DNA of 55,823 nucleotides, filler included, from Squatina squatina (GCA_031763465.1; 3 parts of 3 records of this genome joined end to end with filler, not necessarily neighbours in it), one strand, 5' to 3'; numbered from the whole stretch's first letter, positions 1,194-55,823 are shown. Numbers and translations: made by a program. The notes: a model not told the origin generated them from the sequence alone.

Positions 1194-1315
1194 ATTTGTT
1201 GTTCATGGTCTAAAGGCTATGCATAAGTACATCTTCCGTGTGAAGGCAGTCAATGCTGTGGGAGTAAGTGAGGAGTCCCAAGAATCGGAACCTATTATTG
1301 TCCAAGCAGCTCTTA
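1194..1315 (+). CDS. MYOM2: Myomesin-2 internal exon (FN3 domain, C-terminal half)
   Basis: Pyrimidine tract plus tag acceptor and GTGAGT donor. FVVHGLKAMHKYIFRVKAVNAVGVSEESQESEPIIVQAAL matches MYOM2 FVVHGL...YIFRVKAVNAVGMSENSQES...VQAAL. Confidence 0.95.
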
Positions 1316-1399
1316 GTGAGTACCCATTCCTGGTTCTCAAACAGNNNNNNNNNNCAAAACACGAGGCTAGAAACCATTACTGAAGCAAATAAAGATAGC

Positions 1400-1588
1400 A
1401 GTTTAATCATTTGGAATGCACTGCCTGATAAGATGGTGGATACAGATACAGATTCAACAGCAGCCTTTAAAACGGAATTGGATAAATACTTGAAGTAGAA
1501 AAAATTACAGGGATATGGGGAAAGAGTGTAGGAGGGGGACTAAATGGATTGCTCTTTGAAAGAGCCGGCACAGACTCGATGGGCCGAA
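1400..1588 (+). mobile_element. CR1 LINE 3' end fragment
   Basis: WNALPDKMV...AFKTELDKYLK ORF2 C-terminus plus the 3' UTR motif gagccggcacagactcgatgggccgaa. Confidence 0.7.
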
Positions 1589-2461
1589 NNNNNNNNNNNN
1601 NNNNNNNNNNNNNNNNNNNNNNNNNNNNNNNNNNNNNNNNNNNNNNNNNNNNNNNNNNNNNNNNNNNNNNNNNNNNNNNNNNNNNNNNCTGTACCACCTC
1701 CGATTGACCGCAGAATATTTCAGCTCACCTGATCTAGTAATGAAACCCAGCACACTATTTAAGTTTTTTATTGCTGCTTCACTCTGTTTAGACGTGGCTG
1801 GCAAATTCCTCAAAACTGTTGCTGCTCTGCTGGCATTACTTCACTGGAAGTGCAGTGGAAAAAATCTGTTTATGAGCAAGTATAAGGAATTTCCCAGCCA
1901 TGCTGAGCAAAAAGTGAACTAATATCTTAAGGTCTCTTAAATTCCATCTTGGCAAGTTCCATCCCACTCATGCCTCCTATTGTTACTTCCAATACGCGAA
2001 ACTTTTCATTTCTCCATATTGAATTCACTTGCACTGAGCAGCCCAGGTGCAAACCCTGTTTTGTTCTTTATAAAATTTGTGCTGTGCCCTCAGTCTACAG
2101 TCCCCTGTAACTTGGCTGCAAATGTAACTGCTTTACATTGTGACTGCGATTCCAGGTCACTTCTGCATACCAGGAACAGGGACCTGGAGTAAAACACAAT
2201 GGGGTTAAATTTGTGCAAGCATTCTCCCAAATGTCCACTGTAAATTTTGCTGTTTACGCTGTTTCTCCAGAGTTTCTGTGGGTCATCTGCTAAATTTATG
2301 GTGGACAATTGCGAAAATCCCCATTGAAATTAATGGCAAATGATTTTTGTTTGGAGATTGTAACATACACTACAGTATAAAATTACTTCCAAGAAGTTTT
2401 CTGCTGCAATCCATGGTAATAGCAATATTGATGGATTCTTTCTTTTGTTGTTCCTTAAAAG

Positions 2462-2588
2462 GTTGAAAATCTGAAAGAAGGTGGTTTTTATGAGTTTAAA
2501 GTCAGTGCTATGAATCTGGGTGGTGTTGGCATCCCTTCAGAGTCCAGCCGGCCTTTCAAGTGTGAAGCATGGACTATGCCAGAACCAG
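2462..2588 (+). CDS. MYOM2: Myomesin-2 internal exon (FN3 domain)
   Basis: aag acceptor and GTAATA donor. VENLKEGGFYEFKVSAMNLGGVGIPSESSRPFKCEAWTMPEP(G) contains the MYOM2 motif FKCEAWTMPEPG. Confidence 0.95.
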
Positions 2589-3739
2589 GTAATAGAACTT
2601 CCAGAGGCATGTCATTATTAACACAATTCACTAATAATGTCGACCAGTCGCTTAGACTAGGTGTGCATCTTCATTTTGTAACCTGCTTTGCAAAAGAGTT
2701 TGATAGCAATATTTAAGAAAAAGACCTCAAAATTCCTGGGGCTGGAAAGGTGGAAAGCCTGATTTCCGCTTGGGGCAGGGGGAGGCAGGAAGTTGGGATG
2801 AAAGCTGGTTAAATCAGGATTCTGCCCCATTCATATGGTTCTTTATATTCCGATGGAGGAGGGCCAAGGGTGGTTTTCAAGGGGACATGTTGGGTGGAGT
2901 TGCCGAGCTACCATGGGATTCCTGCCTTTACCCTTTGAAAGGTCTCAGTGGACACCTGGCGTAAGTCCCTTTGAGGCCTTCTGAGAGGCCCCAAACCTTA
3001 TCTTGGCTGAGGTGATTGATCCCAGTGGAGACTGATAATCTTGCCTGGAGATAAAATGGTTCATTTTAGAACTGAATACTTCGAAAGTTAAATATTTTCT
3101 TGAGCCCTGTTTGGACCTTCAGAGGACTTCAGGTGGACTGCCTCTGGGTTTGCTCCACCTTACAAGAGTTGATCAGGGCAGCTGCTGCTGATGTCCCCGT
3201 ACAGGCACTGGTGGTTTGCCCCATCCGTGCAAATGATCTCAGAAACTTGGGACACCATTGCACTTGCATTGGCGGAGTGGTCCTCCATGAATTTCAGGAC
3301 CAAATATTCTGTCATTGGAAAGTAAGTACTGCATAAATACCCAGCTTAAATAATTAAACGGGAAGGGAGTATATTCAACTGATTTTTCATAGTGATGTTA
3401 ATCTTTCCAGTGTTGTGGACATGCTTGCTTGTCCAAGCGCGGTTGGGCTCAATCAGGTCACAAATGAGTTTCCTCATGTCAAAGAACAACCTGGCCACAT
3501 TTACAACGTGATAATGCCAAAACTTCAATGGATTTGCTTTTGACTGGCTGATAAAAGGCCTTAAAGTTAGTTTACAGCCACTGAATATTGATTTTTTTTT
3601 GGAAAGTTTGTTCTCACTTCCAAAATTGAGGGTAAAAAAAACAGTGGAAGTAAAACATTCCAAGGTTTTTTTGTTGGGTGGCAGGAGGGGAGAGGGTGTG
3701 GTAAGAAAAAGTCTTATCTTAGAATAGGTAGAAATAAAT

Positions 3740-4080
3740 CATACTAAAATTAAAGAAATACTAGGGGCTTTCAAAATTATGAAAGATTTTGTGAATGTGA
3801 ATCTTGAAAAGTGAAAGATGTTTCCACTAGTTGGTGAACTGGTAACCAGGTAAGTGAAGGAGCAAACGGAGGGTTATTCAGACTCACTTTACCACAAGTA
3901 GCTACTGAGGCAGAGAAAGAAGCATCATTTAAAAGGGAATATAAGTATTTGAAAAGGAAGAATGATAAGTTTTTAAGGAAAGGGCTGGGAAGTGGGAGTA
4001 AAGTAGATGGCTCCAGTTGAAGAGGTAGCATTCACACAGATGGGCTGAATGGCATATGCTGTAAACTCCACGATTATATG
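3740..4080 (+). mobile_element. Degenerate CR1 LINE 3' end
   Basis: Same 3'-end motifs as 1400-1588 (atttaaaagggaa...tatttgaaaagg...gatgggctgaatggc). Confidence 0.55.
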
Positions 4081-5212
4081 AAAATAAGAATAGACCAGAG
4101 ATGATGATGGTGACAGTGACAGTGTGTGAACTGAAAACTTGGAAAATGAGACAGCCCTGGGTGACATATTTCCTTNNNNNNNNNNNNNNNNNNNNNNNNN
4201 NNNNNNNNNNNNNNNNNNNNNNNNNNNNNNNNNNNNNNNNNNNNNNNNNNNNNNNNNNNNNNNNNNNNNNNNNNNCATTGCACTCTACAATAATGATTTA
4301 TATTTCCTGTCCTGTTGCACATCTATTACGCGTCAGTGGAAGTATATACATGGGCTTACTATTCATGCCACAAGAGGTTGCTATTGCACTTTGTGAATTC
4401 TTTGTTGTATCACAGTAGTTACAAAGCTAGTCAGTGACAACGAACAGAAGAAATTTATCCCAGGTTCCCGAATATTTTAAAATGGGACTGTCTAACTTGC
4501 AAGCCGTATATTTTGATGACATTTTTTTTAACCTTGTGTAATATTTTACATATGAGCTAAAAGAAATACTGAATCTTCTTGTCTTGCCCAATATATGTGT
4601 ACGTGCACTAGTTTAAGATTTGTTAACTTACAGGACAGTCTGCTTCTGAACTGAAGATAAAATGCACCCCAGAAGGAATCAGAATTCAGTCCTTCTTGAA
4701 GTACTACATGGAGGACATGAAGGTTTTCTGGTATCACAAGTATGTGAACCTGTATTAACATACACTGGAATAGTAGATTAATGGCATGTTGCAGAAGTAC
4801 GTGCTTTACACTGTATCGTGATCATGCAGACTTGTTATGCTTAGCTCTACTTACTAGACAACTACCTGATCAGTGAAGTAAGTTGAGTAGAAACTGAAAA
4901 TCCAAAAACTATTTTCTGATAAAGGAGTGATTGTCACTACTCCTGTCCNNNNNNNNNNNNNNNNNNNNNNNNNNNNNNNNNNNNNNNNNNNNNNNNNNNN
5001 NNNNNNNNNNNNNNNNNNNNNNNNNNNNNNNNNNNNNNNNNNNNNNNNAGACGGGGAAGTCAACACTAAGTTTGTTTTTGACTCGCTCATGCCCCTTTCA
5101 CGCTATGAAAGGGGGTCAGAAATCAGGACCTCGGCCTTGCCTGCAGCAGTGCGACAGTAAAAGCTATGAAGTTTTTGTGAACTTTAACTTACTTTTGTGC
5201 CTTGTGCTCCAG

Positions 5213-5572
5213 ACATTGAGCCTCACTTCCACTGTGTTTGGGGATCCGACTCCTGAGGTAACCTGGCTCAAGAATGACAAAGATCTCGAATTGAATGGCC
5301 ACCACAGTGCGACTCTCGAGCAGGGAAAATATGCTTCCCTGACCATTAAAGGCGTTACCACGGACGATTCGGGAAAATATGGCATTAACGTCAGGAACAA
5401 ATATGGCGGCGAGACAATTGACGTCACTGTAAGTGTTTATAAACATGGTGAGGAGATCCCGTTGGTAAAAAGAGGGGCTCAGAAAGCCCCAGAGCAGCCA
5501 AAGGCAGCTCCTCCTAAGGCTGCTAAACCTGCAGAGCCTCCTAAGGATTCAAAGCTTGGAAGAAGAAAGTAA
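5213..5572 (+). CDS. MYOM2: Myomesin-2 last coding exon (C-terminal Ig domain and tail)
   Basis: ctccag acceptor. TLSLTSTVFGDPTPEVTWLKND...DSGKYGINVRNKYGGETIDVTVSVYKHGEEIP...GRRK* matches the MYOM2 C-terminus (IDVTVSVYKHGE). Confidence 0.95.
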   Translation, partial: TLSLTSTVFGDPTPEVTWLKNDKDLELNGHHSATLEQGKYASLTIKGVTTDDSGKYGINVRNKYGGETIDVTVSVYKHGEEIPLVKRGAQKAPEQPKAAPPKAAKPAEPPKDSKLGRRK

Positions 5573-37303: not shown

Positions 37304-37385
37304 GAGATAATTCGGTACGAGTACCATGTTGTCTACTCCAGCAGTTACCAGGCACCTGTGCTATATTTCAGAGCTTGTTATTCAG
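37304..37385 (+). CDS. ATG10: ATG10 internal exon (5' part lost in gap)
   Basis: EIIRYEYHVVYSSSYQAPVLYFRACYS then G|GTATGT. Matches recalled ATG10 EVIKYEYHVLYSCSYQVPVLYFRASFL(D). Confidence 0.93.
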
Positions 37386-40300
37386 GTATGTTAAGCTCAA
37401 CATAAATGGAATTTAAGCTTCAGTCAACTTAACATTTCACTGCTTAATGTTTCAATCTCTTTTTCTCCTGCCTTTTAATATACACACCTTGGACCCAAGC
37501 TTTTCTGCCTCTCTCCAGTCCTATTCTCTGGCTTTTAAACATCACTCCCCTCTCCGTTTTCCCATCTCAAATTTTCCTGGCTTGCATTGCTCCTTGGCTC
37601 CACTTTCTGCTGCTCCCCTGTCGAACTCCTCTCCTCCCCCCATGACTTTCGTTGCATCTGAACAGGCTTACAGCATCCCACTCCTTCAACCTAGGTTTCC
37701 TTCACTGTGCTCACTGTAGCACTCACCAGTGCCTCTGCCCCAGTAGGACCCAATTTGCCTTATTCCCCTTGAACACACATTTTCCCTGCCAATACACTTG
37801 CCTGCAGTAAATGTTTCTAACTTCCTTTCTATCNNNNNNNNNNNNNNNNNNNNNNNNNNNNNNNNNNNNNNNNNNNNNNNNNNNNNNNNNNNNNNNNNNN
37901 NNNNNNNNNNNNNNNNNNNNNNNNNNNNNNNNNTGCCCACTGTGTGCACACTGCTCACTGCCCATGATGTAAGCACTTCTCATTTCCCACAGCACATGCC
38001 CTTCCCACCTTACCTGTTAATTCCACACACATGAAAATTGCCCACCATATGGAACTCATGTATGTTGTAATTTCTGGGATATTTTTGACTTCCTTGTTCT
38101 TGTTTTTTTTTCTTTATCTGATAAATAAAATGTGTGCTAATCTTGAAAGTTAAACTTTTATTTATACTGTATCCTCTAGGCCAGGGAAACCTGTCCAGTA
38201 TGTGGAGATAATTGATGCTTTACAATTATATGGAAATGAATGAAAGGAAGGTGTTTCGCTAATAATTCAGATGCCTATAAATGGACCGAATTTGATTTTA
38301 CCCATATTTTCAGAGTATAAAATTAGACATAAACTAACTTAGATTATTAAAGTAAATTAGAATGTTTCAATTGTAAGACCTTTTTTTAAAAAAACAAGTA
38401 GCATGTTTTTCTTTGTGTATTTTCCAGTATGGCAGTTATATTATTAACAAACCATGTGAGGAAATTAATGGCACTTAGTCCACTCATATTCTTGATGGAC
38501 CAACTGATGTTCTTTCAGTTGGCTTTCGTCTCAGCGGGAATCTCTCCTGAGTCGTCATTCATCCATTTTATGTGCACCAACATCCAGTAACTTGTTTTAA
38601 CTGCTTTCGTTTTAAATACTGTAAATCAATTACAACACACAGCTGTTTAATGAAACTTCTGAAATGTTGCTAGAAATCTCTGTGGGCATTTCCTGGTGGC
38701 TCATAATGACACCAATTTGCCACACCTGGCAAGATCTGCTCACACTGAAAGGGGCAATTCTAAAGTTGAATGAAAACTGTTAACCCTTTGAGTCTTGCAA
38801 TATCAGTTCCAGAGCACGAGGGTCTAAATTTGCTATTATTTTTAAAAAATGATTATTTTAGATTCCCTAATTTCGAAGCGACTGCCAATGTACCATAATT
38901 TGCTAAATTCAACATTACCCTATAGGTTCTACCATATCAACTATTTATTATGTGAATGTAGTTCTCCATTTGCAGTCCATACTGTACATCACTGAGCACA
39001 GTTTCTTCATTTTGTGGATTATGAGTTAATAACCCTTTGTTTTATAGATTTTACCTGATTGAATTTGAAATGTCATCTTTTCATTTTACTTGTTAGCAGT
39101 ACGTTGATTTTGAAATTGCTACTGATTGTGGAAGTGACCCATCAATCACAGTTTACCTTCCGTAATGAATTTCTCACCCTTTTCCATCTGCTAAATTGCC
39201 GCCTTAAATCTACGTGTGCTGGGAGGAAAACCTTGGAGTCATGCAGAGCAATAACGCAGAGGTTCCAAAGCACACTGCACGGACTGGGCGCTCAGTGCCC
39301 TCATAAAGGGCTTTCATGAACAGTTAGCTGACAATTTTATGCTGAAGGGGCCCTGTAACAAATCAGCTAAGAATGAACTCTGGCTGCATCAACATTGAGA
39401 CCTGGAAGGAAGGCCATAAAGAGTTCTATGATTTAAAAAAAGACAGCCGATGTAAAAATGACCGTGACTAATAAAGGACGTGGGACATTATTAGCAGGGA
39501 ATTTACAATTGTGAATGGTTAGAATTTATGAATGAAGCACTGTTTTTATGGAAAACGTCAACATTCTGTGGATCAAATTGTCTCTCCCAATACAGGAAAA
39601 AAGTTCCTGTTTGGCTTTTGCTTAGTTTATGAATAAATTTGTCTAAATCTGAAATACTTGTGCGNNNNNNNNNNNNNNNNNNNNNNNNNNNNNNNNNNNN
39701 NNNNNNNNNNNNNNNNNNNNNNNNNNNNNNNNNNNNNNNNNNNNNNNNNNNNNNNNNNNNNNNNTTGCATCTGTGTTTTCTTTGTTTTACTGAAACTTCT
39801 TGGAAAAACTGTTGGCCTTGTTTTACAGTGACTGAAGTTTTTGGTCAAAACATCTCACTGGCCAAATTTTTAAAGCTGCCATTTAACAAAAGTCTCTGAG
39901 GGAATTTAAGTTTTGTTGGCCTTGTCAGAGTCTTCATGACCACTATCTTCAGTCTTTGCCAATGTACCACTATTTTAAGGACTACCTACCCTGAAGGAGT
40001 TTCCTCACCAGGGCAGGGAAAGGGTGATTTAAGCAGTGAAAAACTATATTGAAAGATAGATGGCTGAAGTAGATTTGAATTATGCTAATACTTTATTGCT
40101 GGGGAGGAACCCAGGATGTCAACACGTCACAAAGGAGAAGTTTGATCATTAATTTAGAAACCATACAGATTTAGGTAAGAAATTGACACTTCTAGGAAAG
40201 GAGCCAGAGACCAATGACTGAAACAACTCTCTGGGACCAGAAAGTTGCCCGGGATCAGTTCCAAATCTTTGCTTGCCCTCACTGTTAAACACGAGATTCA

Positions 40301-41029
40301 TAAACCTAAGGCTTTACAGCCTATCTGAATTTGCAGATGTTTTGGGCACAGACCCAGTACGATTGTAACTGCTGCTGACTTTGAGTGCACCAGTCTTTCT
40401 GGCTTTATCAGTAGATGTGTCTCTATTGGTGAGGATGATCACAATGGGACTGGCAGCCAGATGTGCAGACTTAAAGAAAATCACCGAACAAATATAAATA
40501 ATAACAAAAATGCATCCTTGTCAACGCTAACAAAAAAAACCTTACTTTTATGGGACCTTGCTGAGCTCAATTAGCTTCTGTGTTTGTCTACAAAACAAGT
40601 AATTACATCAAAAAGTAAATCTTTGGATTTGAAGCACTTGAAATTTTTGAGAAGGTGATATATAAATGCAATTTATTTAATTCTGTAACAATTGACTTAA
40701 AAAGTAATAAAATTACCTGAATATATGGTCATTGAAGTGTTCATTCTGTGGAACTTTTTTGGTGTATTCTGTTGCTAATATCTGGTTTTAGTCGGTTTTT
40801 GAAATAAGTGGGTACCCATTTGTTATGCTCTTCTGATTTAAAAGTGGTTTATTGTGATATTTTCAAAACTGTTTTAAGACTGCTGTTTCATAGTACAATT
40901 AGAAACAGTAATATAATTTATTTTACATAGTCTGGAAATGTGTTCCCGTGCTCTCTCTGATCCAGTTAGTCTTCACTTCACTCCCAGGTAGTTTATTTGA
41001 TACAGTATACTAAGGTTTTCTATAGTTCT

Positions 41030-41126
41030 TAAGGCTAAAGGGATCTGGAGAGAAAGCAGGGACAGGGTACTGAATTTGGAAGATCAGCCATGATCTCATT
41101 GAATGGCGGAGCGGGCTCGAAGGGCC
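41030..41126 (+). mobile_element. CR1 LINE 3' UTR fragment
   Basis: gatcagccatgatctcattgaatggcggagcgggctcgaagggcc, a CR1-type tail. Confidence 0.6.
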
Positions 41127-42470
41127 NNNNNNNNNNNNNNNNNNNNNNNNNNNNNNNNNNNNNNNNNNNNNNNNNNNNNNNNNNNNNNNNNNNNNNNNNN
41201 NNNNNNNNNNNNNNNNNNNNNNNNNNNNNNNNNNNNNNNNNNNNNNNNNNNNNNNNNNNNNNNNNNNNNNNNNNNNNNNNNNNNNNNNNNNNNNNNNNNN
41301 NNNNNNNNNNACACTTGAGATGGTTAGAGGCTCTACACCCAACAGAACATGGCATAAAATTCACCACAAGTACAGGACCCAGGGTTTAACCCGGTCCCAG
41401 CCATTCAAGATCACTCCTCTTTAAGTTAGAGAACAGCTACAGCTTTTCGGTGTCTCCATGTTTTAATAACCCTATATGTAGAAAGAATTTCTTCTAATTT
41501 ACCTTTCCATTCTTCTAATGATAACCCTGAGTTTGTGCCCCTTGTTACCAATTCACAAACCAGTCGAAATTATCGTCCACTATTTACACTTTCAAACCTT
41601 TTCATCATTTTGAAAATCTTTGTTCGATTCCCCCCTCCCCCAAACCTTCTGTGTTCCAATGAAAAAGCTCTAATCTTTCACACCTTTCTTCATTGCGCAT
41701 TCATGGTATAATTCTAGTGAATCTTCACTCTCTGCTTTCCATGGTTTTAATATTCTTCCTGCAATGCAGTGCCTAGAACTGTGATTGACTGCTGTAACTT
41801 CAGTGAAATATCAACATTTATACTGTTTCTCCAGGGTTTCTACGGACCTTCTACCTAAATTACAGCAATCAGGAGACTCCCCCCACCCCCGTCCAAAATT
41901 CAAACCCCAAATTTTGTGAAAGCTACAGTATCATGTGCCTCCATTCTAATTAATGTATGTAGTTCATTGAGTCTTTATAATGCTTTGCACATTTGCATAT
42001 AAGCACTGGAACCCTGACCCTTTTGTATTCCTAAGTATGCTTTTCCTTCTGTTTTTCAATCATTATTTCTTATTCTTTCCTTTTCTTATTTGCCATAAGT
42101 TACATCTCTTCATAACCTCCTTAAACTTACTATTTTAGACTACTTTGACCCATCACTTTATTCTTAATCCAACCATATATTCTCTAGCCTTTACCTTTCC
42201 CCTTGCTTTGCAAGTTTAAATCATCCTTGAATTCTTCAGTTCTAAAAGAGTTAAGTAAATTAAAAGTTCATTATACCTACAATAATACAAAGAAAACTTT
42301 AAAAATTTGGGAATAGGTATAATGGATACAGGGAAACAACAGGGATTGCAGGAGATAGCCTCAGTGTGCAGCTGGCACAGGTACATTGGGCCGAATGGTG
42401 GCTTCCTGTGGTGAAACCTCTGTAAAACAATAACTTGGTTCTTAAACATCTTTTTGCATTTATTTGTCAG

Positions 42471-42568
42471 GAGCACCATTTACTTGGCCAACCATTTTTC
42501 GTTCTTCATCCTTGTCGAACATCTGAATTAATGACTCCAATAATGGATGGTGCCACACAGGAGCAGAG
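42471..42568 (+). CDS. ATG10: ATG10 exon with catalytic HPC motif
   Basis: tgtcag acceptor, GTAAAG donor, 98 bp. EHHLLGQPFFVLHPCRTSELMTPIMDGATQEQ(R) versus human EHPILGQPFFVLHPCKTNEFMTPV. Confidence 0.95.
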
Positions 42569-44619
42569 GTAAAGTGTTTTAACAGGGAGTCTGTTGAGCT
42601 TCTAACATTGGTACCAGTTGAACGCAGGTGAATTAGAATGCATTGAATTACTATTAGGACAATGAAAATGGATGTTAGCATTTTTAAGCAATTAGATCTA
42701 CAGTTTAGATAAGAACAAATGGATTTCTGGCTCTTCTGACTTGATAATGAAGAGTAAAGTGAGGTGGATAAACAAGTGTAGTTAACTGTTGAGTACAAAG
42801 TTTTTCTGAAACTTTTCAAAATCTGAGGCCATTTTTCATTATCTGGCACCTACGGGTAGGGAATGAAAAGTAAATGATTATGCTGTTCATTATAAATAAC
42901 ACAACACAAATATTTCTTAATTTATGTTTTAATACAAGTTTTTTTTTAGATTATTTCAAGAAAATTATACATAATAAATTATTTAACCCTTTAAAGATAA
43001 TTGATCTCTCCATAGACCTATAGTAAAGTTTTACAGTTGGTCTCGTGCTTTCTGTCTCTTAAAAATGTAAAACATTTGTAAAACTGCATTATGTTTTAAC
43101 TTTTCTTTTGCTTTCAGTGATGAGGCATAATTCCTTCAGGACAACTATCTTTGACCTTCATCAGCTTTAACAAAGCAGCAGGCTAAAACATCCTGAAGTA
43201 ATTATGGTTCAGCAGCACAAGGCAGGAGAAACTTTGAACGTATGGAGAGTCTTTGGTGTGTTTAAAAAAAAAAGGCATAGAACAAGAGAGAGTGCACTAA
43301 AATTCCACAACTATTAGATGTGCTGACTAATGTCTCCAAAATAACTAGCTTTACTCGTTCGTTCTTCTCAGAAGTTTCAATACATCCATCATCCAATAGT
43401 AAAATCACAGGGACGATGACCCTTTCAAGTTTTAATCTTCTGTAGTCTTGGAAGAGATGTACAGTATTTCCTGACTCATGCTGTATAAATGGGACGGTAG
43501 CAGACTGTGAAGCAAAGACAAGGATTCAGAATAACTTACACTTCCTGTGCTTAGAATGGATCACTCTATTCTAACTTGGAGTTTCAGTGACGTCATCATC
43601 TTAATTTGGCAAAAAAAAATTTGCATCAGTATATATTTCTACAATTCTATTTTTTTTTGTTCATAAAACAGTTCCACCGTTCACAAACTAGGTCTCCCAG
43701 TCCATGCTTGCTTTAGGTTTTGCTAGTCCTCATATGGGGTCATTCCAGAAACTAAATATCATTGTTGTTACTTTCTACTGAAACACAACTTCGGAAAATG
43801 TAAAACTTGCTGCTTTTTTTAGATGGTCTTATTCATTCTTACCTCCAGTCACTGAAATATGACCTTTGGGCGTCAGCCTGCAGCCGAAAGATGAATTCTT
43901 TTGCGTCAGATAAGGATTTGACTAGTATGGCAAAGTAGTCATTAATAGGGAAAATTTGTCTTTTTAACAACAGTAACTGCACTTCAGAAGTTATCCATTG
44001 ATTGTAAACTGCTTTGGTACGTCCTAAGAACGTGACGAGGTGCTATATAAGTGTAGATTCTTTCTTTACCTATTATAAGAGCATAAATGAGAAGAAATCT
44101 ATTTTGTGGGGGTATTGGAAGAAAACAGGTCAATAACTTGGCAGTCTTTCTCCAACTTTCACCCTGAGGCATTAATGTCACCGATTCTCTGACCTGGAAC
44201 TTGTGATTGCCCTTACTAGCTCTTGTGGTTCCAAGAAAGACCATAGATTGTTGGTCAGCAACTTCTGCATCTCTGGGGAGTTGCTGGTTGAATGATCAGA
44301 CTGCACCAAAGCTAGAATTAACTCTGTGAAGTCCTCTGATTAGAAAGCTTATCCCAACACCCATCACCACCACCACTGTCATCAATTAAGTTAATTATGT
44401 AAGAATTTCTTGATGGCAACCACTGAGGATCTGACGTAGTTAGTTTAACCAAATCGACACAGACTTTGGCCTCAGCTTCAGCTTAGGAAGAGTTATCATT
44501 GCTACACAACTTAAGGTTCAGACTGCTTCACATACTTTCAGGTTTCAGCTTTCAGCTTTGGGGTTTCTGATTCAGAAAGGATGAGTCAGCACCTCTCGCA
44601 CTCAGACCTTAAAATCTCT

Positions 44620-44764
44620 GAGGTCAGAAGTGGGGATGTTTGCTGATGACTGCACAGTGTTCAGTGCCATTGGCAACTCCTCAGATCATGAAGCGGTCCA
44701 TGCCCGCATGCAGCAAGACCTGGACAACATCCAGGCTTGGGCTGATAAGTGGCAAGTAACATTC
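44620..44764 (+). mobile_element. CR1/L2-clade reverse transcriptase fragment
   Basis: EVGMFADDCTVF...MQQDLDNIQAWADKWQVTF, containing the FADD catalytic motif. Confidence 0.85.
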
Positions 44765-46619
44765 NNNNNNNNNNNNNNNNNNNNNNNNNNNNNNNNNNNN
44801 NNNNNNNNNNNNNNNNNNNNNNNNNNNNNNNNNNNNNNNNNNNNNNNNNNNNNNNNNNNNNNNNTAAAGGTTCATCATAACTTCCTTGCTTTTGTATCAT
44901 ATACTTCTATTCATGGCATTTCATCTACTTTTATGGGGTGCCATAAATTCAATATGAAATGGCTTGTTTTAAATTCTCGTAACCTCAAGCTAAGATAGAC
45001 AAATGATCTCCTAATAACCATTGAGGGAGCCACTTCTCATGTACAATTCTAACCCATAATCCAAGTATGCACTAAGTACATGTCCTTTTTGGAGAATAAA
45101 TCCTTTATCCACTGAAACTCATCCAAGAAATTGGACGCTTGGGGCCAGAAGGTGCTCTTGCAGGGCACGCTGCAAACAAGATTAGCTACATATGGTAACA
45201 TTTATCAGTTAGCAGTGGATGAGAACTGACCTGCCGTTAGGCTGGCCCAAGTTTCTGTGATTGATAACACATTGCAGGGATGTAAGGCAGTTAATATGTA
45301 GACTGTAAAGCTGTTTCAACGCTTGAAGTAAGAGCACTTATTGACTCTTCTAGTGTGCGGGTGCCTGGTTACTGATCTCAGATCTGTTTGAGGATCTGCA
45401 GTCAAAGGCGTTGAAGCTTCTTTGAGGAAAGACTGATACTTGTAAAAAGGTTAAGTAATTGCTAAGGTGTTGTGAGAAACTCCAGCAAACCACCGCAGTA
45501 ATAAACACCAATGAGCAACAAACTCCTTNNNNNNNNNNNNNNNNNNNNNNNNNNNNNNNNNNNNNNNNNNNNNNNNNNNNNNNNNNNNNNNNNNNNNNNN
45601 NNNNNNNNNNNNNNNNNNNNNNNNNNNNACGGAAGTATTTTAAAATCCATAGGTAGGGGAGGTAGGATAGGAGAAAGAGCCCAAGGTGGTTTTATTATAA
45701 CTATTTGACAATTGCTGTAAGGTTAATTAAATAAACAAACAAATATAGTGAGCTGTGCAGGAAGGATATAAAGCTTAGTGGATGAAATTTTGCTTTGCCA
45801 TATTAGTAACAAATGAGTTAACATATTCAGATGTAATTCCTTGGTTAATTATTTGAACAAAGGCATTAACTATGTTATTTTAAATGGGTTAACTTTTGTT
45901 AAAATAACAAACAGAATGACTTAATTTGAGTGCATTAATGGTTGGTTACTAATGTTGCACAGTGTGATTTCAAGCATTTGTTTCCAATATAACTAATAAC
46001 TGTTTATTAAAAGGTGCCGTGGAATGGTCAGATGAGGATCCATGCCTGTGATTGTCCAGCGGACAAATTGTCAGTGTTGGAAAGACAGTGAGGGAAGAGA
46101 GGTGAGCAAGGTTCTTCCCTACAGAGGTGGAGAAAACTGGAGGCAAGATCCACATGGGCTGATTTTGTGTTCCATTTAACAGTTGGTGACAGATTAGTAT
46201 TGGCAGAGGTCTAGTGGTAGCTTCCCATCTGCCCTCTTGTATCAAGTTGTAGTCAAGAAAAGGCAAATATTCACAGGGTTTATTTCGGCTTATTTGTAGA
46301 ATACTGTAAATTTACAAACATTGTAGTTCCACACCCTGCTCTGTAGCATTCTGTTTTAGAGTTATATAGGGAAAAATGAGTCATGGTTGACAGTCAGACT
46401 GCTAAGGACGTTAACAATGTGAAAGAATTGAAGTACATTCTTCAAAGAATGAGATGCAAGGATTTTTTAGTATGAATTTAGTACTAGGCGTTGGTTGTGT
46501 CTCTGTTAGATTTGCACTGTCTGGTTTCTTCAACTTATTTTGTCTCAGCAGTATAGAAATGAGAGTGGGTAGGAAGGTTAGAAATCTAATTAGGGCTTCC
46601 TCTCAATGGTTCATCGAGC

Positions 46620-47010
46620 TTATCCACTGAGGAGCTGAATGATTATAGACCAGGAAGCATCCAGATTCGAACCTAGCCTGTGCTGAATTAGCTGATCTCA
46701 GCCACAGCAGTGGTAGGGGTGCTAAAATTGGCATCAGCACTCCCGGATTAAAGAGTGGAAAATCAGCTAAGGTTGCTGCTTCTGATCATTATCCAGCGAT
46801 CCCTGTTGGAAGTGAATTGTGTATGGATGAGGACTGCATAGGGTTTGTCTGTGACCCCCCCTCCCGTTGATGGTGGAATAGCTTGCATGCACTCACCGTA
46901 GATGTGAATAATGGGCAATTGAGCAAGGCCCTGGAGAGCACCCTGTGCCCAGTGAGCCATATCCTAGCAAGGAGTCAATTCCTTCAGGAAAGGGGAGTGG
47001 AGAAAACTGG
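46620..47010 (+). mobile_element. SINE-like interspersed repeat; second diverged copy at about 52940-53220
   Basis: B-box-like gattcgaacc. Shared body (ggtaggggtgctaaaattggc / ggtagtaaggctgctacaattagc; gttgctgcttctgatc / attgctgcttctggat). Confidence 0.55.
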
Positions 47011-47414
47011 TGAGTAAAGAGAAAAAAATGTAACGAGACAAAAAGCATTGCAGCGCTCAAACTCTGCCTTTTAGACATGTCTAAAAATGTGACTGGTTTC
47101 TGCTGATTGGAAACACATTTCAGAGTTACTGACATTCAGATTCAGAATACTTCGGGCTGTATGAGCTATGCTGCCATGCAGGCAATCCTTTTGTAATTCA
47201 TTATGAGTGCCTTTGAAAATGTCCGTTTTACTTCTACTTGTTCTACATGGTAATGCAAAGCATTCACTTTTCAGGTTGCATACACTGTTTTGTTTAAATC
47301 CCCTAAGACAGAAAGCAAAAATATTTCAAAATTGTAAACACCTATAATTAAAAAAATGCAATGCATCTTTTTTTGAAGAAAATGCCATGCTTATTTTATG
47401 TTTCTTTTGTTTAG

Positions 47415-47526
47415 GAATGTAAATTACATCACAAGCTGGCTGAGCATGATGGGGCCAGTAGTGGGACTCGACTTGCCGTTGAGCTATGCCACAGCTGTGT
47501 CACAGGGCATTTTTGGCCCAGATTGA
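47415..47526 (+). CDS. ATG10: ATG10 last coding exon
   Basis: ttttgtttag acceptor, phase-compatible with 42568. NVNYITSWLSMMGPVVGLDLPLSYATAVSQGIFGPD* versus human NVNYITSWLSIVGPVVGLNLPLSYA. Confidence 0.95.
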
Positions 47527-48020
47527 AGAAAGTATGTGTGTACAAGAAATTTATTTTCCACAATCCATTTTCAGTTTAACATTGTTTGAACAGAAGCTAA
47601 TGTGTGGAGCGGAATTGGGCAAATTGCACAAGGGGGTAAAAAAGAATCAAGAATTGTGTTTTTTTTTGTAGGGAATGTTTGTAATGAGAATTATAAATAT
47701 TACAGATCTCTGCTGTGTAGATGTTTCAATTATCAACAATGTCACTTAGCTTGTTAAATTTTAATGCTGAATGTTTTGTCCATGAGAAACAGGAAAGGTG
47801 GGGGCTGTATTGCAGAGAGTAAAGTGGAAATGTTTTTGAGAGCAAAGTGGTAGTGATCTGATGAATAGAGTCATGGGGATTGAATGTATGTGAGTATATC
47901 AGTTATTCCAGTTTGATCAAAAACAGTTGGCTGTTCTAGCTGTTACGCAGCAGGGATTCCCAAATAATGTTCATATTGATAAATTTTAACATACATTAAC
48001 ATTTCTGTTTTCTTTTTCAG

Positions 48021-48070
48021 GCCACCAGTTCAATATAAAACAATTAAATTTCTCATTTAATATATATAGA
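48021..48070 (+). other. ATG10: Candidate ATG10 non-coding terminal exon
   Basis: GTATGT donor 5 nt after the stop (47532), strong acceptor tttctttttcag at 48020, and ATTAAA just downstream. Confidence 0.45.
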
Positions 48071-51000
48071 TAATTTTGGGTATGTAAAATTAATATTAAT
48101 TTGGTGTGCATGATACTCTACTCCTTAAAATTCATGTTATTCAACTGCAAATCTCTGGTGCTGCCTTGATGGGTTGAATGTCCTTTTATCATGTAGTAAC
48201 ATTTTATGATTCCATGAATGCAAGTATAGCTGAGGGATTTTACTGACTTTAAATTCCTCAATGGGCATTTGCACTTAGGTTTTCTGCAGGGAACAAGTTC
48301 TAGCAATTATCNNNNNNNNNNNNNNNNNNNNNNNNNNNNNNNNNNNNNNNNNNNNNNNNNNNNNNNNNNNNNNNNNNNNNNNNNNNNNNNNNNNNNNNNN
48401 NNNNNNNNNNNAAAACAAGTACTTCATTGGTTATAAAGCTGTTTGAGACGTCCTGAGGACGTGAAGGACACTGTATAGATGCAAGTTATTTTCTTTTTCA
48501 TTTTCTGAAAGATAAGTCTTCCTGTTTGCGGCCCAAATAGAACCGTTTCCGAGCATTCAGTTCTGAGTGTCCAGGTTTGTCGCACAGTTTCTGCCCACTT
48601 GTCCTCCTCACCCAGGAACATACCCTGCGAGTAATGGGCTTTCCATCTCCCTGCAACAATGTACATCGCAGTACGACTATCTCACAACCCAGCTCATCGC
48701 ACTGACTTCATCACCATGACAACACAGTGTCAGAGATTCGATACAATCTGAGCTTTTTTTGGAGTGTATAAATAAAAATATCCAGGTGATGTTTATTGCT
48801 GAGATCATAGCCATCATTGAATTCTGAGAAGAAAAACAACAATCTTTATCCAAAATCAAATGAACAGCTGCCTACTTGCACTGTCAAGCTTCGTTCTCAG
48901 TACTTGCTGCTTGAGATACGTCACTCTGTGATTAGTCTGTGCTGTTGATGAAAACTTGTCTTTGACCTGTGATACAGTATTGTTTTAATTGTTATCAAAA
49001 GAATCTGTGTCTCTGAGCTTTAAGATATTTTGTTTAAACACTGTGGTAGTGTCAGCTAATGTGGACATGTGTGCTGAAGTGTAGCAGAATGCACTTGCCA
49101 CCAAAAGGGAGACACACACGCACATTTTCTGCTGAAACCTTGAGATGTTTTGGCCATGATGGAATGAAANNNNNNNNNNCTGTAATTGTTGACTAGAATG
49201 ATACCAAGAAGTTCCCTTAAAACCATTTCTTCATGCTCTTCTTAATAGCTGTCGTAAAGATTCAAACACTTGGATGGAAGCATTTTATTTTGAACATATA
49301 GTTTACATTTTCTGTGTTTTTGGAAGTGTCACAGTGCTTGAAAACCTGGTTTAATGTTGACACACATTGTGCAAAAGATACAAGTGAAAATAAGGTATTA
49401 TAGAAGCTGTTACTGAACAGCACAAATCAGAATGAAAATACAATGGAGCCCTCTTCAGGTCAACTTAAGTTACCTCTAGAAATGCCTAGATTTAAAAAAA
49501 ATATAAGCATATATATTAACGNNNNNNNNNNNNNNNNNNNNNNNNNNNNNNNNNNNNNNNNNNNNNNNNNNNNNNNNNNNNNNNNNNNNNNNNNNNNNNN
49601 NNNNNNNNNNNNNNNNNNNNNAGTTTGATCTATATGTGACTAGCCCAGCAAGCGACTTAGTTGTCTGGACAACTAGCACAACACTGGGTTGTAGCGGCAC
49701 GTGGGTGGACATTGCTCGCATCCTGAGACCTTTTGTTTTAAAAGACCACCTGTCAGGAATTTTTGGTTTACACGGCTTTACTGGAAGAGAGCTTAACTTG
49801 CATGTATCAATCTGTTTTTGAGGCTTTCTCTTCTGGCATCCTGTCGGGGACATTCTCTACTTTGGATTGAATTGTTTTTGCCATTTCTTCTTTATATTTT
49901 TCCAGTTTAGGTATTGTTAAATCTTTCCCAGCTGTCAATTCCAATCGCATGTTTATTTCTAATGGCTTTCAGATTTGTTTTGCGATTGGGTCAGCCTGAT
50001 GTCTTCATTTGTGCCACTGTTGCTACATAGCCATCAATCTGCCTGCTTTAACAACCTTGCTCTGGTACTTTAATCCCATCCTAAAAAGGGAAAAGTCTTG
50101 TTTGATGACAGCAGAAGCTTCAGAGAAGCACTTTCATTATAAGCTTATTTTCTACCTGGCAGGAAATGACTACAATTTTGTGATTAAATTTCCCTCTCGT
50201 GGAGACCCATCATTTCAGGTCTTCACTCACGTCGGAAGATGTAATTCCTGAGGGCAGTTGGCATTCATAATAAGTACATCTGTGTATTGTGCCAGTATAA
50301 CTTTTCACAACTTGGATATCTGTATATTTTGATTGGCACGCAGGCTGATTCAAAGCAGTGACGTGTGTTAGCACATGAGCCCACTCCAGAATGCATGCCT
50401 TTTATGCTCTAGTGCTATAGAGAATGATGAGTCTTTCTGGTACAAGGGAGTATTGTTATGCTTCATTTTCATTGCGTCAAATTAATTTTGTTCTTGCAAA
50501 GAGAGACGCGGGCAGCGGGGTGCCAGCAGAATTAATCCGTGGTGCAGAGCACTGGAAAAGTTTGTCCTCTGCTAGAGTGAGACAGAATGGGGTGTCCATG
50601 TCCAGGAAATGTGCAGGGCAGGCTTGCATGGTAGAAAAATTGTGAATTTTGTTGGACACTGTAAAACCCATAGATAAAGGTATTGGTAAGGAATCCTTGA
50701 TTATATTTGTACTCTCTTCAGCATTCATNNNNNNNNNNNNNNNNNNNNNNNNNNNNNNNNNNNNNNNNNNNNNNNNNNNNNNNNNNNNNNNNNNNNNNNN
50801 NNNNNNNNNNNNNNNNNNNNNNNNNNNNTTGTGCCACTATGTGTCTCCTGAGATCTGATTGTGGAGTGTCATTAGTAGTGAGCATGGGGTTCCTACTTAT
50901 TGGCCCATTGCTAAAAGGTGTGTTGATGGGGATAATCAGTAACACACTGGAAAGTGTTTAAATACATAAATGTAATAATATGCACATCAATTTCTACCTG

Positions 51001-51216
51001 AAACAGTGTGTATTACAAAAGTGACAGATTCCTGCAGTAAAAAAGACATGTAATACTATATTTAGTGCATAAATGCTAGTGGTTGATCTTTAGACATTTG
51101 CTGACTGACACTTTTTTTAATCTGGAATAATCAAGTCACTATTGTGAACCTGCGAATAACATTATATATTTAAAGCACTGGCAGCATTTTCCTTCTTTAA
51201 ATGTGAAACGTTTCCA

Positions 51217-51233
51217 CAGCGCCATCTACTGGC
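51217..51233 (-). promoter_or_regulatory. CTCF-like binding motif
   Basis: Reverse strand GCCAGTAGATGGCGCTG matches the CCAsnAGrkGGCrc consensus. Confidence 0.55.
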
Positions 51234-51988
51234 TGTTTCTTAGCTGCAGAGCCGTGCACGTAACCCTGCTTTAAAAATTGAATCTTTTTAAAAACAACAC
51301 TCCCTAGGAGCTAACATCCCCTTGGTTTTGTTTTCTGCCTTATTTTTATTTAAACAGTGACTCATGGCAACCTAATCTGGGGTACTAGCTGTTGCAATTA
51401 CTGTGCCCAATAAGTGAGAAGTAGCTATTTCAGAAGATGCAGGATTCCCTGGTGATCTTGTGATTTAATTATGTATGTTCATTCAGCTCTAGCACAGTAG
51501 GGGGGTCAGTAATTCCACCAAGCCAATTCCCTAAATGATTGCCATTTTCTATACATTCAGCAAATTTTACAGTGTGTTGTGGAAAAGTCGTATGGAGGTT
51601 GTACTCCTAACACCCGGAATCACATGGCTGCTCTTCTGAGGTTGGGACTAAGCCTCATTATTGGGTAGAGAAGAGGGACGGCTGCTGTGGCTGGCCTGCG
51701 TGTGTCTAATGCTGACATTGAGTTGCCTGGAAAGTGTTCCATTCCTTAGTACTTATCCCCCATCTCAATGGTCCTAAGTTCATCAAAAAAACTACATTGG
51801 ATAAGCCTAAATGCTACTTTGAAAGTTTTCAGACCTGCTTTTGATTTGCATGTTTTGTGTATTGTATATATTGCATCATAATGCAAATTAAATGTTACAT
51901 TTTGTACCTCCTTTTTTTTAAAAAAAAACATCTGTGGTGTGGGTTTATGTGTAAAGGGCATATTGTGCCATATTTTTGTATTTTGCAG

Positions 51989-52158
51989 TGTTTGTTTCCA
52001 ATTGGGTCCCTCCTTTCATTGAAGAACCATCATGTTATAACAGTGGAGGCATTGGGGTCTGTAAAGAAGGGTTTACACCCCATACAACAGCGACTGGCTG
52101 ATTACAATGGAAGTCAGTGTGGATTCTGCAGCCCAGGCTTTGTCATGCAGATGTATGG
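51989..52158 (+). CDS. Aldehyde oxidase/xanthine dehydrogenase-like exon, 2Fe-2S domains
   Basis: ttttgcag acceptor and GTAAGT donor. CLFPIGSLLSLKNHHVITVEALGSVKKGLHPIQQRLADYNGSQCGFCSPGFVMQMY(G) carries the QCGFCxPG FeS motif. Confidence 0.93.
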
Positions 52159-52213
52159 GTAAGTACAGAAAACTATCTATTTTGAATATCTACCTAAAAT
52201 ATGTTCTGTTTTT

Positions 52214-52459
52214 AAGCTTGAGGAACAGCACTTCATCTTTCTATTAGGCATTTTATAGCATTCCGGACTCAACATCGAGTTCAACAAATTCAGATCAATA
52301 TCACTGCCCCCATTTTTTCGGACAACAGCTGTTGTTTACAGCTCCTCTACATTTACAGCTCCTCTAGACCCATCTCTTGTTTCTTGTCTCATTACCATCC
52401 CTTTCACCTTGCACCATCATCCCTTGATCATTTAATCTATCCTGCCTTCCACCCAATCA
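52214..52459 (+). mobile_element. Penelope-like element: end of GIY-YIG ORF and 3' repeat
   Basis: KLEEQHFIFLLGIL*HSGLNIEFNKFR is a degenerate GIY-YIG C-terminal motif (LGTLxPxGLN). The tail is homologous to 26832-26950. Confidence 0.75.
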
Positions 52460-52559
52460 NNNNNNNNNNNNNNNNNNNNNNNNNNNNNNNNNNNNNNNNN
52501 NNNNNNNNNNNNNNNNNNNNNNNNNNNNNNNNNNNNNNNNNNNNNNNNNNNNNNNNNNN

Positions 52560-52720
52560 TTTAAAAAGTATTTGGATACGCACTTGAAGTGTCGTAATCT
52601 ACAGGGCTACGGGCCAAGAACTGGAAAGTGGGATTAGGCTGAATAGCTCTTTTTCAGTTGGCACAGAAATGATGGGTCAAATGGCCTCCTTCTGTGCTGT
52701 AAATTTCTGTGATTCTATGA
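52560..52720 (+). mobile_element. CR1 LINE 3' end
   Basis: tttaaaaagtatttggat...ctggaaagtgggattag...gatgggtcaaatggcctccttctgtgctgtaaatttctgtgattctatga. Confidence 0.7.
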
Positions 52721-54714
52721 AATATTAGGGTACAAGGAGTTCCTTTTGAAATCGCAGGAAAGGCTTCCCTCAGGCTAAGCTCCTTTTAAGATTCACTCCT
52801 CATCAGCATACAGAGTTTGAAGAATACAATTGAAGTACACAACCATTTTTGTATCTACAAGACAACATTGATTCTGCACAATAATATTAATGAACTGGAA
52901 GCATAGTTCCCCAAAAAGCTCCTTTTGTAAGCAGCATTAAACTGAGCCATATTTGCCTGTTGGGCCAAGGTTTGATTCTATGCTGCGTTGCCTTATTTTA
53001 GTTGGAGAGGTAGTAAGGCTGCTACAATTAGCCTCTCCACCCCTGAACTAGTTAAAAGAAATGAGCTAGGATTGCTGCTTCTGGATTGTGATTCAGTGGT
53101 CCTTGCTGTAAAAGGCACTTGCGTGGAAGTTGGGTGAGTTCAGGATTGGGTTGACTGTAATGCCCTCTGCCCCCACCCACTCGCCCCTCCCCCTGCCTCC
53201 CCAGTTTAATAATGCTCTAGCATTTAATGTCAAGGTTCAAGAAGAACCATTTGGGCAAGGTACCAGAGGGTAATCAGTGACCGTGGAACTGTATTCTAGC
53301 AGGGAGGCAATACCAGTAGGAAATGAAAGTTGAGGACAATCAAGGGAAAATTGGCAACAAAAAGCACAAATCATTAAAAAATGATGAACATGCTTCAGCT
53401 CCTTAGTAATGCTTATAATCCTTATCTTATGATTTGAATTATAGTCCATAGTTCAGAATCTCTGAGGCTTGTTCCCTTGATACTGGCACATAAATTATCT
53501 TATGTTCAAGACCAGAAAGCTCTCACTGACAGAATTGGTCCAAACTCCATCATCAAAAATATCTTTCTTCTTTTAGGATAGTTCTGTACCTCCCATTTTT
53601 CAAAGATGTGAATGTAATCTTTTAAAGTTTCTTGATCAAGAAGTGCTTAGTAAACAAACAAAAACCAAAATACATCTGATTTAAAATTATCCACACCAAA
53701 GCTCAGTTTAAAAAAAAAGCATCTTGCCCTCTAATCATGCCATCTTCCCACATGTATCCCTTATTGACCTATGACTGCCATTGCTCTCACAATACATTGG
53801 AAGATAGAGCTGCTTTTGTTTCTCAGCTTGGCTCATTGAGTCAATATCCTTGGTGTCTAAACAACACAATCTAATTTGGCATGTGATTTTTCATCGATAT
53901 ACTAAAACCTTGCCTAAGAGAAAAATAAACATAACTTCAAGATATGCAGCTTGGAAGATCTGTAATCAGCTCTGCCTCTTAACAGAGACTTCCTCCCTCT
54001 TCCATGTGAGGTACCCATGGCATGTGCAGTTAACAAAACGGGAGACGAGATTACTCACCTTTTGGTATAGTAAGAAACCTTATTCAAATAAAGTTATATT
54101 CCACATACCATATATTACTGCCCTCTTGCACCACAGACTGATTTGTTGGAAAGGTGCTGGGAAGCAGAGAGGGGCGCCATCATTATTGACTTTCTTTGGG
54201 CATGCCTATCTGGATTTCCAGATTCAGTGCTAATCTGCTCATATTTTATCATGCCCAAATATTCAGAATTTTTGATGTTCATCCTTAATTTTTCCTTAAT
54301 TATTGTACCTTTTTTATTTTCTAATTTTCAATACTAACCAGTGCTTCTTTGTAATGGAGCAACAAAAATCCCATTTCAAAAAGTGAACTGGTTAATTTTT
54401 CTCTTTGAATATAGAACACTAACTTCACTGCATGGGTAATAATCTGTCACCCCCCTGTTGAAGAACCCACGTGATTTATGCCAGCAAACTTGGGATCTAA
54501 ACTTGCAATTTGAAAGTCAGGTGCTGCGTAACAAGTGCAGTCGATGGTGAAAGTGACCGGGCACTACTGCTGTTAACTGAGAATGATGAGAGTGAGATGA
54601 GATGAAAATGCCGGCACGTGCTCGACAGGCCGAATGGCCGCCTTCTGTATTATAACCATTCTATGATGTGGACAAAAAATGTGACTCTGCATGTTTTATG
54701 CTCCATATCAATAG

Positions 54715-54882
54715 GCTGGTGGATGGGCTGGAAATTTGATGATGAAGTGGAAACACCGTGAGTTTGTGTCTGATGTATTTGTGGTCTTTGAAGTTGCTGG
54801 TGCTAAAGTGACTGTTTCAGATATCACTGAAGTGAACACTTACACTCTAATGCAGTTTCTTGATGTCAACATGCAAGGAAAG
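54715..54882 (+). CDS. Aldehyde oxidase/xanthine dehydrogenase-like exon, FAD-binding domain
   Basis: aatag acceptor, GTATGT donor, 168 bp open. AGGWAGNLMMKWKHREFVSDVFVVFEVAGAKVTVSDITEVNTYTLMQFLDVNMQGK resembles invertebrate AOX (VRN)xGxxAGNLxxKHxHxEFPSDxF...FLxxDMxxK. Confidence 0.85.
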
Positions 54883-55157
54883 GTATGTATTCATGACCTG
54901 ATTAAGGATTTCTGTTACAGTTGTAACCTTAGTTACCATACTCACTAAATGATAAGCCAACATTTTAAAATGCCTTTCTGAATAGCGAAGTAGGTTGAAA
55001 ATCGGTCTTTTTCAGTCATAAGTCTCACTTCTGACATGCACTGATTTTGGCAGCTAANNNNNNNNNNNNNNNNNNNNNNNNNNNNNNNNNNNNNNNNNNN
55101 NNNNNNNNNNNNNNNNNNNNNNNNNNNNNNNNNNNNNNNNNNNNNNNNNNNNNNNNN

Positions 55158-55720
55158 GGGCTCGACGTATGCATATCTCTGCAGGGTTTGAAGATGGAAA
55201 GTCGCATCCTGGGTACGCACGCACACCAGCGCCTGACCACCCTCCCTAAGCAGGAGACTCAGAACTGTGGCAGAGACCCAATGCTTTCTTATGTGCCAGA
55301 AGAAGTCGATGAGCTTCTTCTGTATCCTGGTGACAAAACCAGGGGAAGGAATCAAAGTGACAAACTGGTACCACAGCATAGCGGCCACCACCTGATGTAT
55401 GACCAGCGCTCGACCCCTGTAGGACGGCGCACGGAGCAGTCCTGTCCGGCGCCCTAGGTGACTTCGGCCTCCAGCTCTTGCCAATTTGCCGACAGGCTTC
55501 CTTGGCAGGGCTAAGGTAGACTCCCAGATAGAGGCGATGAATAGTACTCCAGGCAAAACACTCTAGCTTCTCCGGCAGGGAGTCCACCCACCAGTGACCT
55601 ACCAGGAGTTCGGAACATTTCTCCCAGCTGATCCTGGCAAAGGGCATGGCCGAGTAGGCCTGCTGGCACTCTCGCATCCTCCGCAAGTTAACGGGATCCG
55701 TGACCATTTGGCTGCCGTGT
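55158..55720 (-). mobile_element. Tx1-clade non-LTR retrotransposon ORF2 fragment
   Basis: Frameshifted YLGVYL...SYRGRALVIHQVVAAMLWY...IQKKLIDFFW...HWVSATVLSLLLREGGQALVC, typical of the Tx1 post-RT region. Confidence 0.85.
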
Positions 55721-55823
55721 TTCCTGCATTGCAACACTAACTACACTTCAAAAGTACTTAATTGGCTGTGAACTGTTTTGGGACATCCTGAGCTTGTGAA
55801 ATTATTACAGAATAATGACCTTC

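Follow-up and report, generated by a model that had tools for sequence, protein, structure and literature searches.

Introduction

Aldehyde oxidases (AOX) are reported to have arisen twice from xanthine dehydrogenase (XDH), and vertebrates are said to have only the second, XDH-derived kind. Here we describe two exons of a molybdo-flavoenzyme gene from the shark Squatina squatina (GCA_031763465.1), exon A at 51989..52158 and exon B at 54715..54882, both on the + strand of the window, by which we mean the whole 55,823-nucleotide (nt) stretch of DNA analysed, filler included. Protein sequence comparison indicates that the gene is very probably a member of the ancient clade of invertebrate-type aldehyde oxidases, separate from vertebrate XDH and AOX1, and that it is a real, vertically inherited and unlabelled vertebrate branch of these enzymes.

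The nearest characterized relative is Drosophila AOX1 (PDB 7px0), the best PDB sequence match (871 bits) of the 1298-amino acid (aa) ortholog from the sevengill shark Heptranchias (P0006, whose residue numbers are used below unless XDH is named), and its first fold match by a negligible margin. The two share RAPG and QNAH motifs, an insertion in the FAD domain and a deletion of the NAD loop, and they fall on the same side of the two-profile test described below. However, identity to insect AOX is only about 38–41%, the insects representing the protostome branch and the shark gene the chordate branch. The pocket residues also differ from those of fly AOX1, Trp999 being invariant in the vertebrate members. 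Insect AOX are without the NAD motif and oxidize aromatic and fatty aldehydes (PMC7724976, available excerpts), and the in vivo substrates of fly AOX are described as unclear (PMC5817353, available excerpts).

Proteins of amphioxus, Ciona, cnidarians, molluscs, sponges and Capsaspora, automatically named ‘xanthine dehydrogenase-like’ or ‘indole-3-acetaldehyde oxidase-like’, lie in the same clade at 41–48% identity, with those of amphioxus and Ciona as sister rows of the vertebrate clade. Unlike the vertebrate members, these relatives often have many copies, for example in Haliotis and Branchiostoma.

Vertebrate XDH (bovine 1fo4, human 2ckj) resembles the shark protein in domain order, fold, the eight FeS cysteines and the equivalents of Gln767, Arg912 and Glu1261. 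In contrast, identity in the fold alignment is about 30%, and the shark protein is without Glu802, Arg880, Phe914, Phe1009, Asp429 and the NAD loop of XDH. The XDH-derived vertebrate AOX (human AOX1 4uhw, mouse AOX3 3zyv) have likewise lost Glu802 and Arg880 and kept the catalytic Glu, and oxidase chemistry is predicted for the shark protein as well. They differ in having a separate origin, since they score as XDH offshoots, in their identity of 27–28% in the fold alignment, and in keeping Phe914/919 where the shark protein has Pro. Excerpts of three papers bear on these residues: Glu802 and Arg880 are never conserved in AOX (PMC5746545), they are replaced in AOX while Glu1265 is essential (PMC2671166), and all vertebrate AOX and XOR have Phe919 (PMC3864932).

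Clade placement

Against the PDB the Heptranchias protein scored 871 bits with fly AOX1, 658–669 with XDH, 629 with mouse AOX3 and 555–561 with human AOX1. An algal XDH gave the mirror order (XDH 1088–1120, AOX1 909–913, AOX3 870, fly AOX1 516). Two profiles were compared, one made from 20 non-vertebrate, non-arthropod AOX-type proteins and the other from four plant and algal XDH-type proteins. All 22 vertebrate rows scored 1718–1837 bits on the invertebrate AOX profile and 803–876 on the XDH profile (Heptranchias 1802/830, lungfish 1762/834, lamprey 1807/874, hagfish 1784/864), and fly AOX1 scored 1381/739. Among PDB chains, all full-length mammalian XDH and AOX were higher on the XDH profile (bovine XDH 1085/1559, human XDH 1080/1535, human AOX1 1020/1334, mouse AOX3 1030/1268). 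On TIGR02969, the model for mammalian AOX, five vertebrate orthologs reached 610–672 bits (shark 610) and apple XDH 1138; the orthologs are thus below the curated cutoff of 1912 for vertebrate AOX1-4.

FastTree and quick IQ-TREE (LG+G4) trees, rooted on the four plant and algal XDH-type rows, were made from 70 of the 198 collected proteins, after isoforms, fragments and redundant paralogs from molluscs, corals and insects had been left out; vertebrate XDH and AOX were placed by the scores above and are not rows of the tree. A clade of 66 AOX-type rows stood apart from the XDH-type rows with support of 100. Within it the vertebrate orthologs formed one clade (100/100), joined by Ciona and amphioxus in a chordate clade (96/98) that is sister to the protostomes, with cnidarians, sponges and Capsaspora outside. 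The branching inside the vertebrates, with cyclostomes first, lungfish next and chimaera, batoids and sharks after them, follows the species tree. Because the order of the tree is that of the chordate species, these comparisons indicate vertical descent from before animals, not contamination.

The initial annotation, made from the window alone, had proposed that a shark retains an old, invertebrate-type AOX paralog. The PDB scores, the two-profile test, TIGR02969 and the trees all support that proposal, and by score (two-profile test, TIGR02969) no grouping within vertebrate XDH or AOX1-4 was seen.

The two exons

Exon A (170 nt, phase 0 to 2) encodes the end of the first [2Fe-2S] domain and the start of the second. 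It corresponds to residues 91–147 and carries three of the eight FeS cysteines. Its start at 51989 is preceded by TTTTGCAG, a pyrimidine tract plus CAG, and its end at 52158 is followed directly by a GTAAGT donor in phase 2, the last codon being short by one base. Exon B (168 nt, phase 0/0) lies between a TAG acceptor and an AAG/GTATGT donor and encodes residues 346–401, in the FAD domain. Both frames are open, and the two open exons with canonical splice sites and the two peptides reported earlier are all present in the window. As also reported, exon A reads straight through HPIQQRLA at the site, between HPVQ and ERIA, where vertebrate XDH and AOX1 are described as having an intron.

Exon A is 100% identical to a protein of the sawshark Pristiophorus and exon B is 98% identical to that of Heptranchias, and the exons are therefore not due to chance. 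Such matches suggest a squalomorph shark as the source. Predicted for Pristiophorus is a short isoform (X4, P0003) that opens with six other residues joined by splicing to exon A. This supports an acceptor at 51989; such an isoform would be without most of the first FeS domain.

Exon A matched Fer2_2 in Pfam (E 2.3e-13) and many family members in the PDB, with bovine XDH at the top. Exon B matched FAD_binding_5 weakly (E 0.003, below the cutoff), and its sole PDB match up to E 10 was Drosophila AOX1 (E 2.1e-6). It holds two indels relative to XDH that are diagnostic of the family, a four-residue insertion after the AGNL motif and a four-residue deletion in the NAD loop. On the AOX and XDH profiles exon A scored 73 and 79 bits, respectively, and exon B 57 and −2.5. 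Of the two motifs on which the initial annotation had relied, the FeS motif NG(S/T)QCG is not diagnostic: exon A scores slightly better on the XDH profile, lamprey and hagfish are without NGSQCG, and an algal XDH-type protein has it. The discriminating score is that of exon B.

Distribution in vertebrates

The full-length search with the Heptranchias protein covered 7997 scored candidates of 713–2272 aa, and the results in this paragraph refer to the best 120 of 721 hits. The first 20 rows were all named vertebrates: 17 cartilaginous-fish clusters (70–88% identity; two of the 17 from one species), lungfish (66%), lamprey (58%) and hagfish (52%). Row 21 was a coral at 48%. Coral, amphioxus and molluscs lay at 45–48%, insects were lowest at 38–40%, and all unnamed rows were at or below 48%. 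Cluster look-ups (30 proteins) gave 29 named vertebrate species with an ortholog: 13 sharks, nine rays and skates, one chimaera, one lungfish, four lampreys and one hagfish. No ray-finned fish, coelacanth or tetrapod ortholog was named among these hits of a protein search, which is not a genome survey, and none is known from mammals. Ray-finned fishes and land vertebrates have likely lost the lineage. Retention in cartilaginous fish had been stated correctly in the initial annotation but too narrowly, since lungfish, lampreys and hagfish also have the gene.

The main shark and ray copy, a protein of about 1298 aa, is 78–90% identical across species, and a single cluster was obtained for most of the species named. 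In Carcharodon and carpet sharks the chromosome that bears the first copy also bears a second, faster-evolving one (P0015/P0179, P0018, P0032, P0012), in which pocket and FAD-site residues are changed. The lungfish protein (P0020) is only 40% identical over residues 346–401, the exon B equivalent, compared to 66% overall, and has Ser for a conserved FAD-site Asp; this segment could be a mis-prediction, a diverged exon copy or early decay.

The databases label these orthologs ‘xanthine dehydrogenase-like’, and the chimaera ortholog (P0149, Callorhinchus XP_042190491.1) is named plain ‘xanthine dehydrogenase’ though it is without the XDH substrate residues. An Atlas search returned generic family clusters only, those named ‘indole-3-acetaldehyde oxidase’ having received the name automatically. 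No description of a vertebrate member was found in an open literature search; key reviews and their supplements, which lie outside it, may already refer to one from a lamprey or chimaera. Excerpts of PMC13653126, PMC4960552, PMC9782417 and PMC7879036 added nothing on such a member.

Domains, active site and predicted activity

Shark, lungfish, lamprey and hagfish orthologs have seven Pfam domains in the same order, of which the window itself holds two exons. The layout is that of the single-chain xanthine oxidase family, with two [2Fe-2S] domains, an FAD domain and a molybdenum cofactor (Moco) domain. A structure model of the Chiloscyllium protein (pLDDT 80.7, pTM 0.83) has the full family fold, with TM scores of 0.89–0.91 to fly AOX1 and 0.88–0.91 to XDH.

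Alignment columns were tied to the numbering of bovine XDH through apple XDH motifs and PDB alignment. All 22 vertebrate rows conserve the eight FeS cysteines, Gln759, Arg902, Gln1176 and Glu1244. The residues that mark XDH are changed: in the Heptranchias protein Glu802 corresponds to Ala794, Arg880 to Glu870/Ser871, Phe914 to Pro904 and Phe1009 to Trp999, and none of the 22 rows has the Glu, Arg or Phe of XDH at columns 794, 870, 904 and 999. The equivalents of Glu802 and Arg880, to which the initial annotation had drawn attention, are thus both replaced throughout. Among the vertebrate rows the Glu802 column holds Ala, Gly, Val or Ser, and the Arg880 column (position 870) holds eight different residues, none of them Arg, the register there being good to plus or minus one at a two-residue gap. 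Phe914 is Pro in 22/22 vertebrate and 44/44 other AOX-type rows, and Phe1009 is Trp in every vertebrate row. The Asp at rat 428 (bovine 429) is Asn (Asn428) in all 22 as well. A motif of the FFxGYRK type in the NAD loop is present in three of the four XDH rows and in none of the 22 vertebrate or 44 other AOX-type rows, the deletion falling inside exon B. Pro at 914, the FAD-domain insertion and the NAD-loop deletion are shared derived characters of the invertebrate-type AOX clade.

Given the demonstrated domain set, clade, conserved cofactor ligands and, as described below, spliced transcripts in relatives, the whole is best summarized as a spliced shark gene of the invertebrate-type AOX clade, vertically inherited in chordates, that probably encodes a broad, O2-using oxidase of aldehydes and N-heterocycles. 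By analogy with its relatives, the enzyme would likely oxidize aldehydes or N-heterocycles and pass electrons to O2 rather than to NAD+. In the family mechanism Glu1244 (Glu1261 of XDH) would deprotonate Mo-OH, which would attack the carbon of the substrate while hydride passes to Mo=S, and electrons would flow from Mo through FeS I, FeS II and FAD to O2. Xanthine is predicted not to be a substrate, because the pocket is without the purine-orienting residues. Broad clearance of dietary or metabolic aldehydes is favored because position 870 is variable and some sharks have the second, faster-evolving copy.

Several points weigh against this account. Vertebrate XDH and AOX were placed by scores only, and the tree is a quick one. 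The predicted fold does not separate the clades, fly AOX1 being first by too small a margin to serve as clade evidence. Active-site residues predict specificity poorly in this molybdo-flavoenzyme family (PMC2671166, available excerpts), the invariant Trp999 could point to a dedicated substrate, and the function of the vertebrate members is a prediction. The lungfish model diverges over exon B and is without the FAD-site Asp. The window holds only 113 of about 1298 codons, so that the integrity of the gene in S. squatina is presumed, and the transcript runs discussed below come from related organisms and are called RNA on a tool's guess.

Alternative interpretations

A less likely, though tenable, view is that the same lineage became a dedicated enzyme for a single endogenous compound such as retinal, pyridoxal, a pterin or a nicotinamide derivative. 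The invariance of Trp999, Pro904 and Asn428, the high identity of the main shark and ray copy and the single cluster of most species would all be expected of such an enzyme. The conservation could, however, be explained by the slow overall evolution of sharks, and the eight residues at position 870 do not suggest one substrate. The characterized insect relatives are broad (PMC7724976, available excerpts). A broad oxidase is the favored reading, with good probability.

It is very unlikely that the gene, functional in other sharks, has decayed to a two-exon remnant in this species. Its other exons are indeed absent from the window: no further exon was found by tblastn with seven orthologs or by a 10-residue identity scan with one ortholog, in which 18 other matches were dismissed as 7/10 chance matches. 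Even between exons A and B, which are 198 codons apart in the protein and only 2.6 kb apart here, the collapsed stretch 52159..54714 (+) is short of 595 nt of coding sequence, the rest of codon 147 and codons 148–345. However, the frames of both exons are open and their splice sites canonical, and their identity to the main-copy proteins of the nearest sharks is 96–100% (A) and 84–98% (B). An assembly gap of 100 N at 52460..52559, likely the site of the missing exons, lies between them. It is one of 39 N runs in the window, mostly exactly 100 long, and depth tables show high-copy repeats at about 52220–52720 and 54500–54700.

Contigs from four of five runs of related organisms, whose RNA status was guessed by the tool and none of which is on record as RNA, begin and end at the exon boundaries in 4/4 runs for exon A and 3/4 for exon B. 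In two of them (X19 and X20, from two studies and two organisms) a single contig spans both exons, and the 594 letters that separate them there make exactly 198 codons. These contigs, of 5946 and 4562 nt, extend 287 and 328 nt upstream of exon A and have room for a 3897-nt reading frame. The DNA runs X1 and X6 gave short repeat contigs only and did not bridge the gap. The window differs from the contigs at four of 171 nt (exon A) and three of 168 (exon B); the six differences listed, three silent and three residue-changing, are too few for a selection test. Since the contigs splice the exons, an N gap lies between them and the neighbouring ATG10-like and myomesin genes are similarly short of exons (the former by a 95-nt exon across such gaps), the absence of further oxidase exons is most likely explained by assembly gaps, not decay.

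It is more improbable still that the protein acts like XDH as an NAD+-linked dehydrogenase of a purine-like or other heterocyclic substrate. The database names and the full XDH-like domain set and fold suggest it, but the equivalents of Glu802, Arg880, Phe914 and Phe1009 are all changed, the NAD loop is deleted and the Asp at bovine 429 is Asn.

There is very little to recommend the view that a fast-evolving branch of vertebrate XDH or AOX1 merely looks like an invertebrate enzyme. The database name, the slightly better XDH score of exon A alone and the lack of vertebrate XDH or AOX rows in the tree would allow it. Against it, the branches of the vertebrate clade are short, not long, the NAD-loop deletion is common to the non-vertebrate AOX-type rows, and mammalian AOX are closer to apple XDH than to the shark protein. 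Pro904 is likewise common to all 44 non-vertebrate rows, whereas vertebrate XDH and AOX keep Phe (PMC3864932, available excerpts).

That the gene came from an invertebrate or parasite, by contamination or by horizontal transfer, is suggested by Drosophila AOX1 as the nearest characterized relative, and contamination was named as a danger in the initial annotation. Either is hardly credible in view of the chromosome-length contigs that carry orthologs in numerous sharks and rays, a tree that follows chordate descent, and myomesin and ATG10-like exons as neighbours, the latter spliced in the same runs.

Neighbouring genes and other features

Directly upstream of the oxidase gene lies an ATG10-like gene, represented by three exons (about 37304–47526, +; Pfam Autophagy_act_C), spliced in two runs, which also show the 95-nt exon missing from the window assembly. 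We take it to be ATG10 from its sequence pattern, Pfam PF03987 also covering ATG3. It can serve as a synteny anchor in tracing how the oxidase was lost.

The 3′ end of a myomesin gene (196–5569, +) has Fn3 exons near 304, 1195 and 2459 and a Lys/Pro/Ala-rich tail. Its last Ig exon matches My13 of myomesin-1, and it follows an Fn3 exon within 2.6 kb, the exons between being missing. The myomesin-ATG10 linkage is presumably unlike the human myomesin loci, and this may be a rearranged gene or a fourth paralog.

In run X17 a 6217-nt contig tracks the intronic stretch 52643–54286 at about 92% identity, as a longer repeat or a retained intron transcribed in a relative. Open frames at 55158–55740 (−) and 44585–44764 (+) resemble retrotransposon reverse-transcriptase remnants; they lie within very high-copy sequence and have no Pfam match. 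No tandem repeats were found at 47000–55823.

Evolutionary significance

RefSeq already has the proteins themselves, the family is known, and the retention of old paralogs in sharks with their loss in bony vertebrates is a familiar pattern. What the gene adds is that vertebrates retained the first kind of AOX as far as lungfish, the sister group of tetrapods, which dates its loss. The chimaera record called ‘xanthine dehydrogenase’ is a naming trap that could mislead studies of purine metabolism. The two kinds of AOX form a natural pair for the study of convergent enzyme evolution, and this one is a candidate xenobiotic-oxidizing enzyme in sharks and lampreys.

A broader scenario can be offered only tentatively. 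Early vertebrates may have had three molybdo-flavoenzyme lineages. Hagfish, lampreys, cartilaginous fishes and lungfish would have kept the pre-animal AOX, and at least three losses (in ray-finned fishes, coelacanth and tetrapods) would have occurred, each time where an XDH-derived AOX could take over. If so, an ancient enzyme gave way to a convergent copy of itself. Both kinds of AOX may then still be present in sharks and lungfish, which would permit a side-by-side test in one animal, and in jawless fishes this gene may be the sole aldehyde oxidase.

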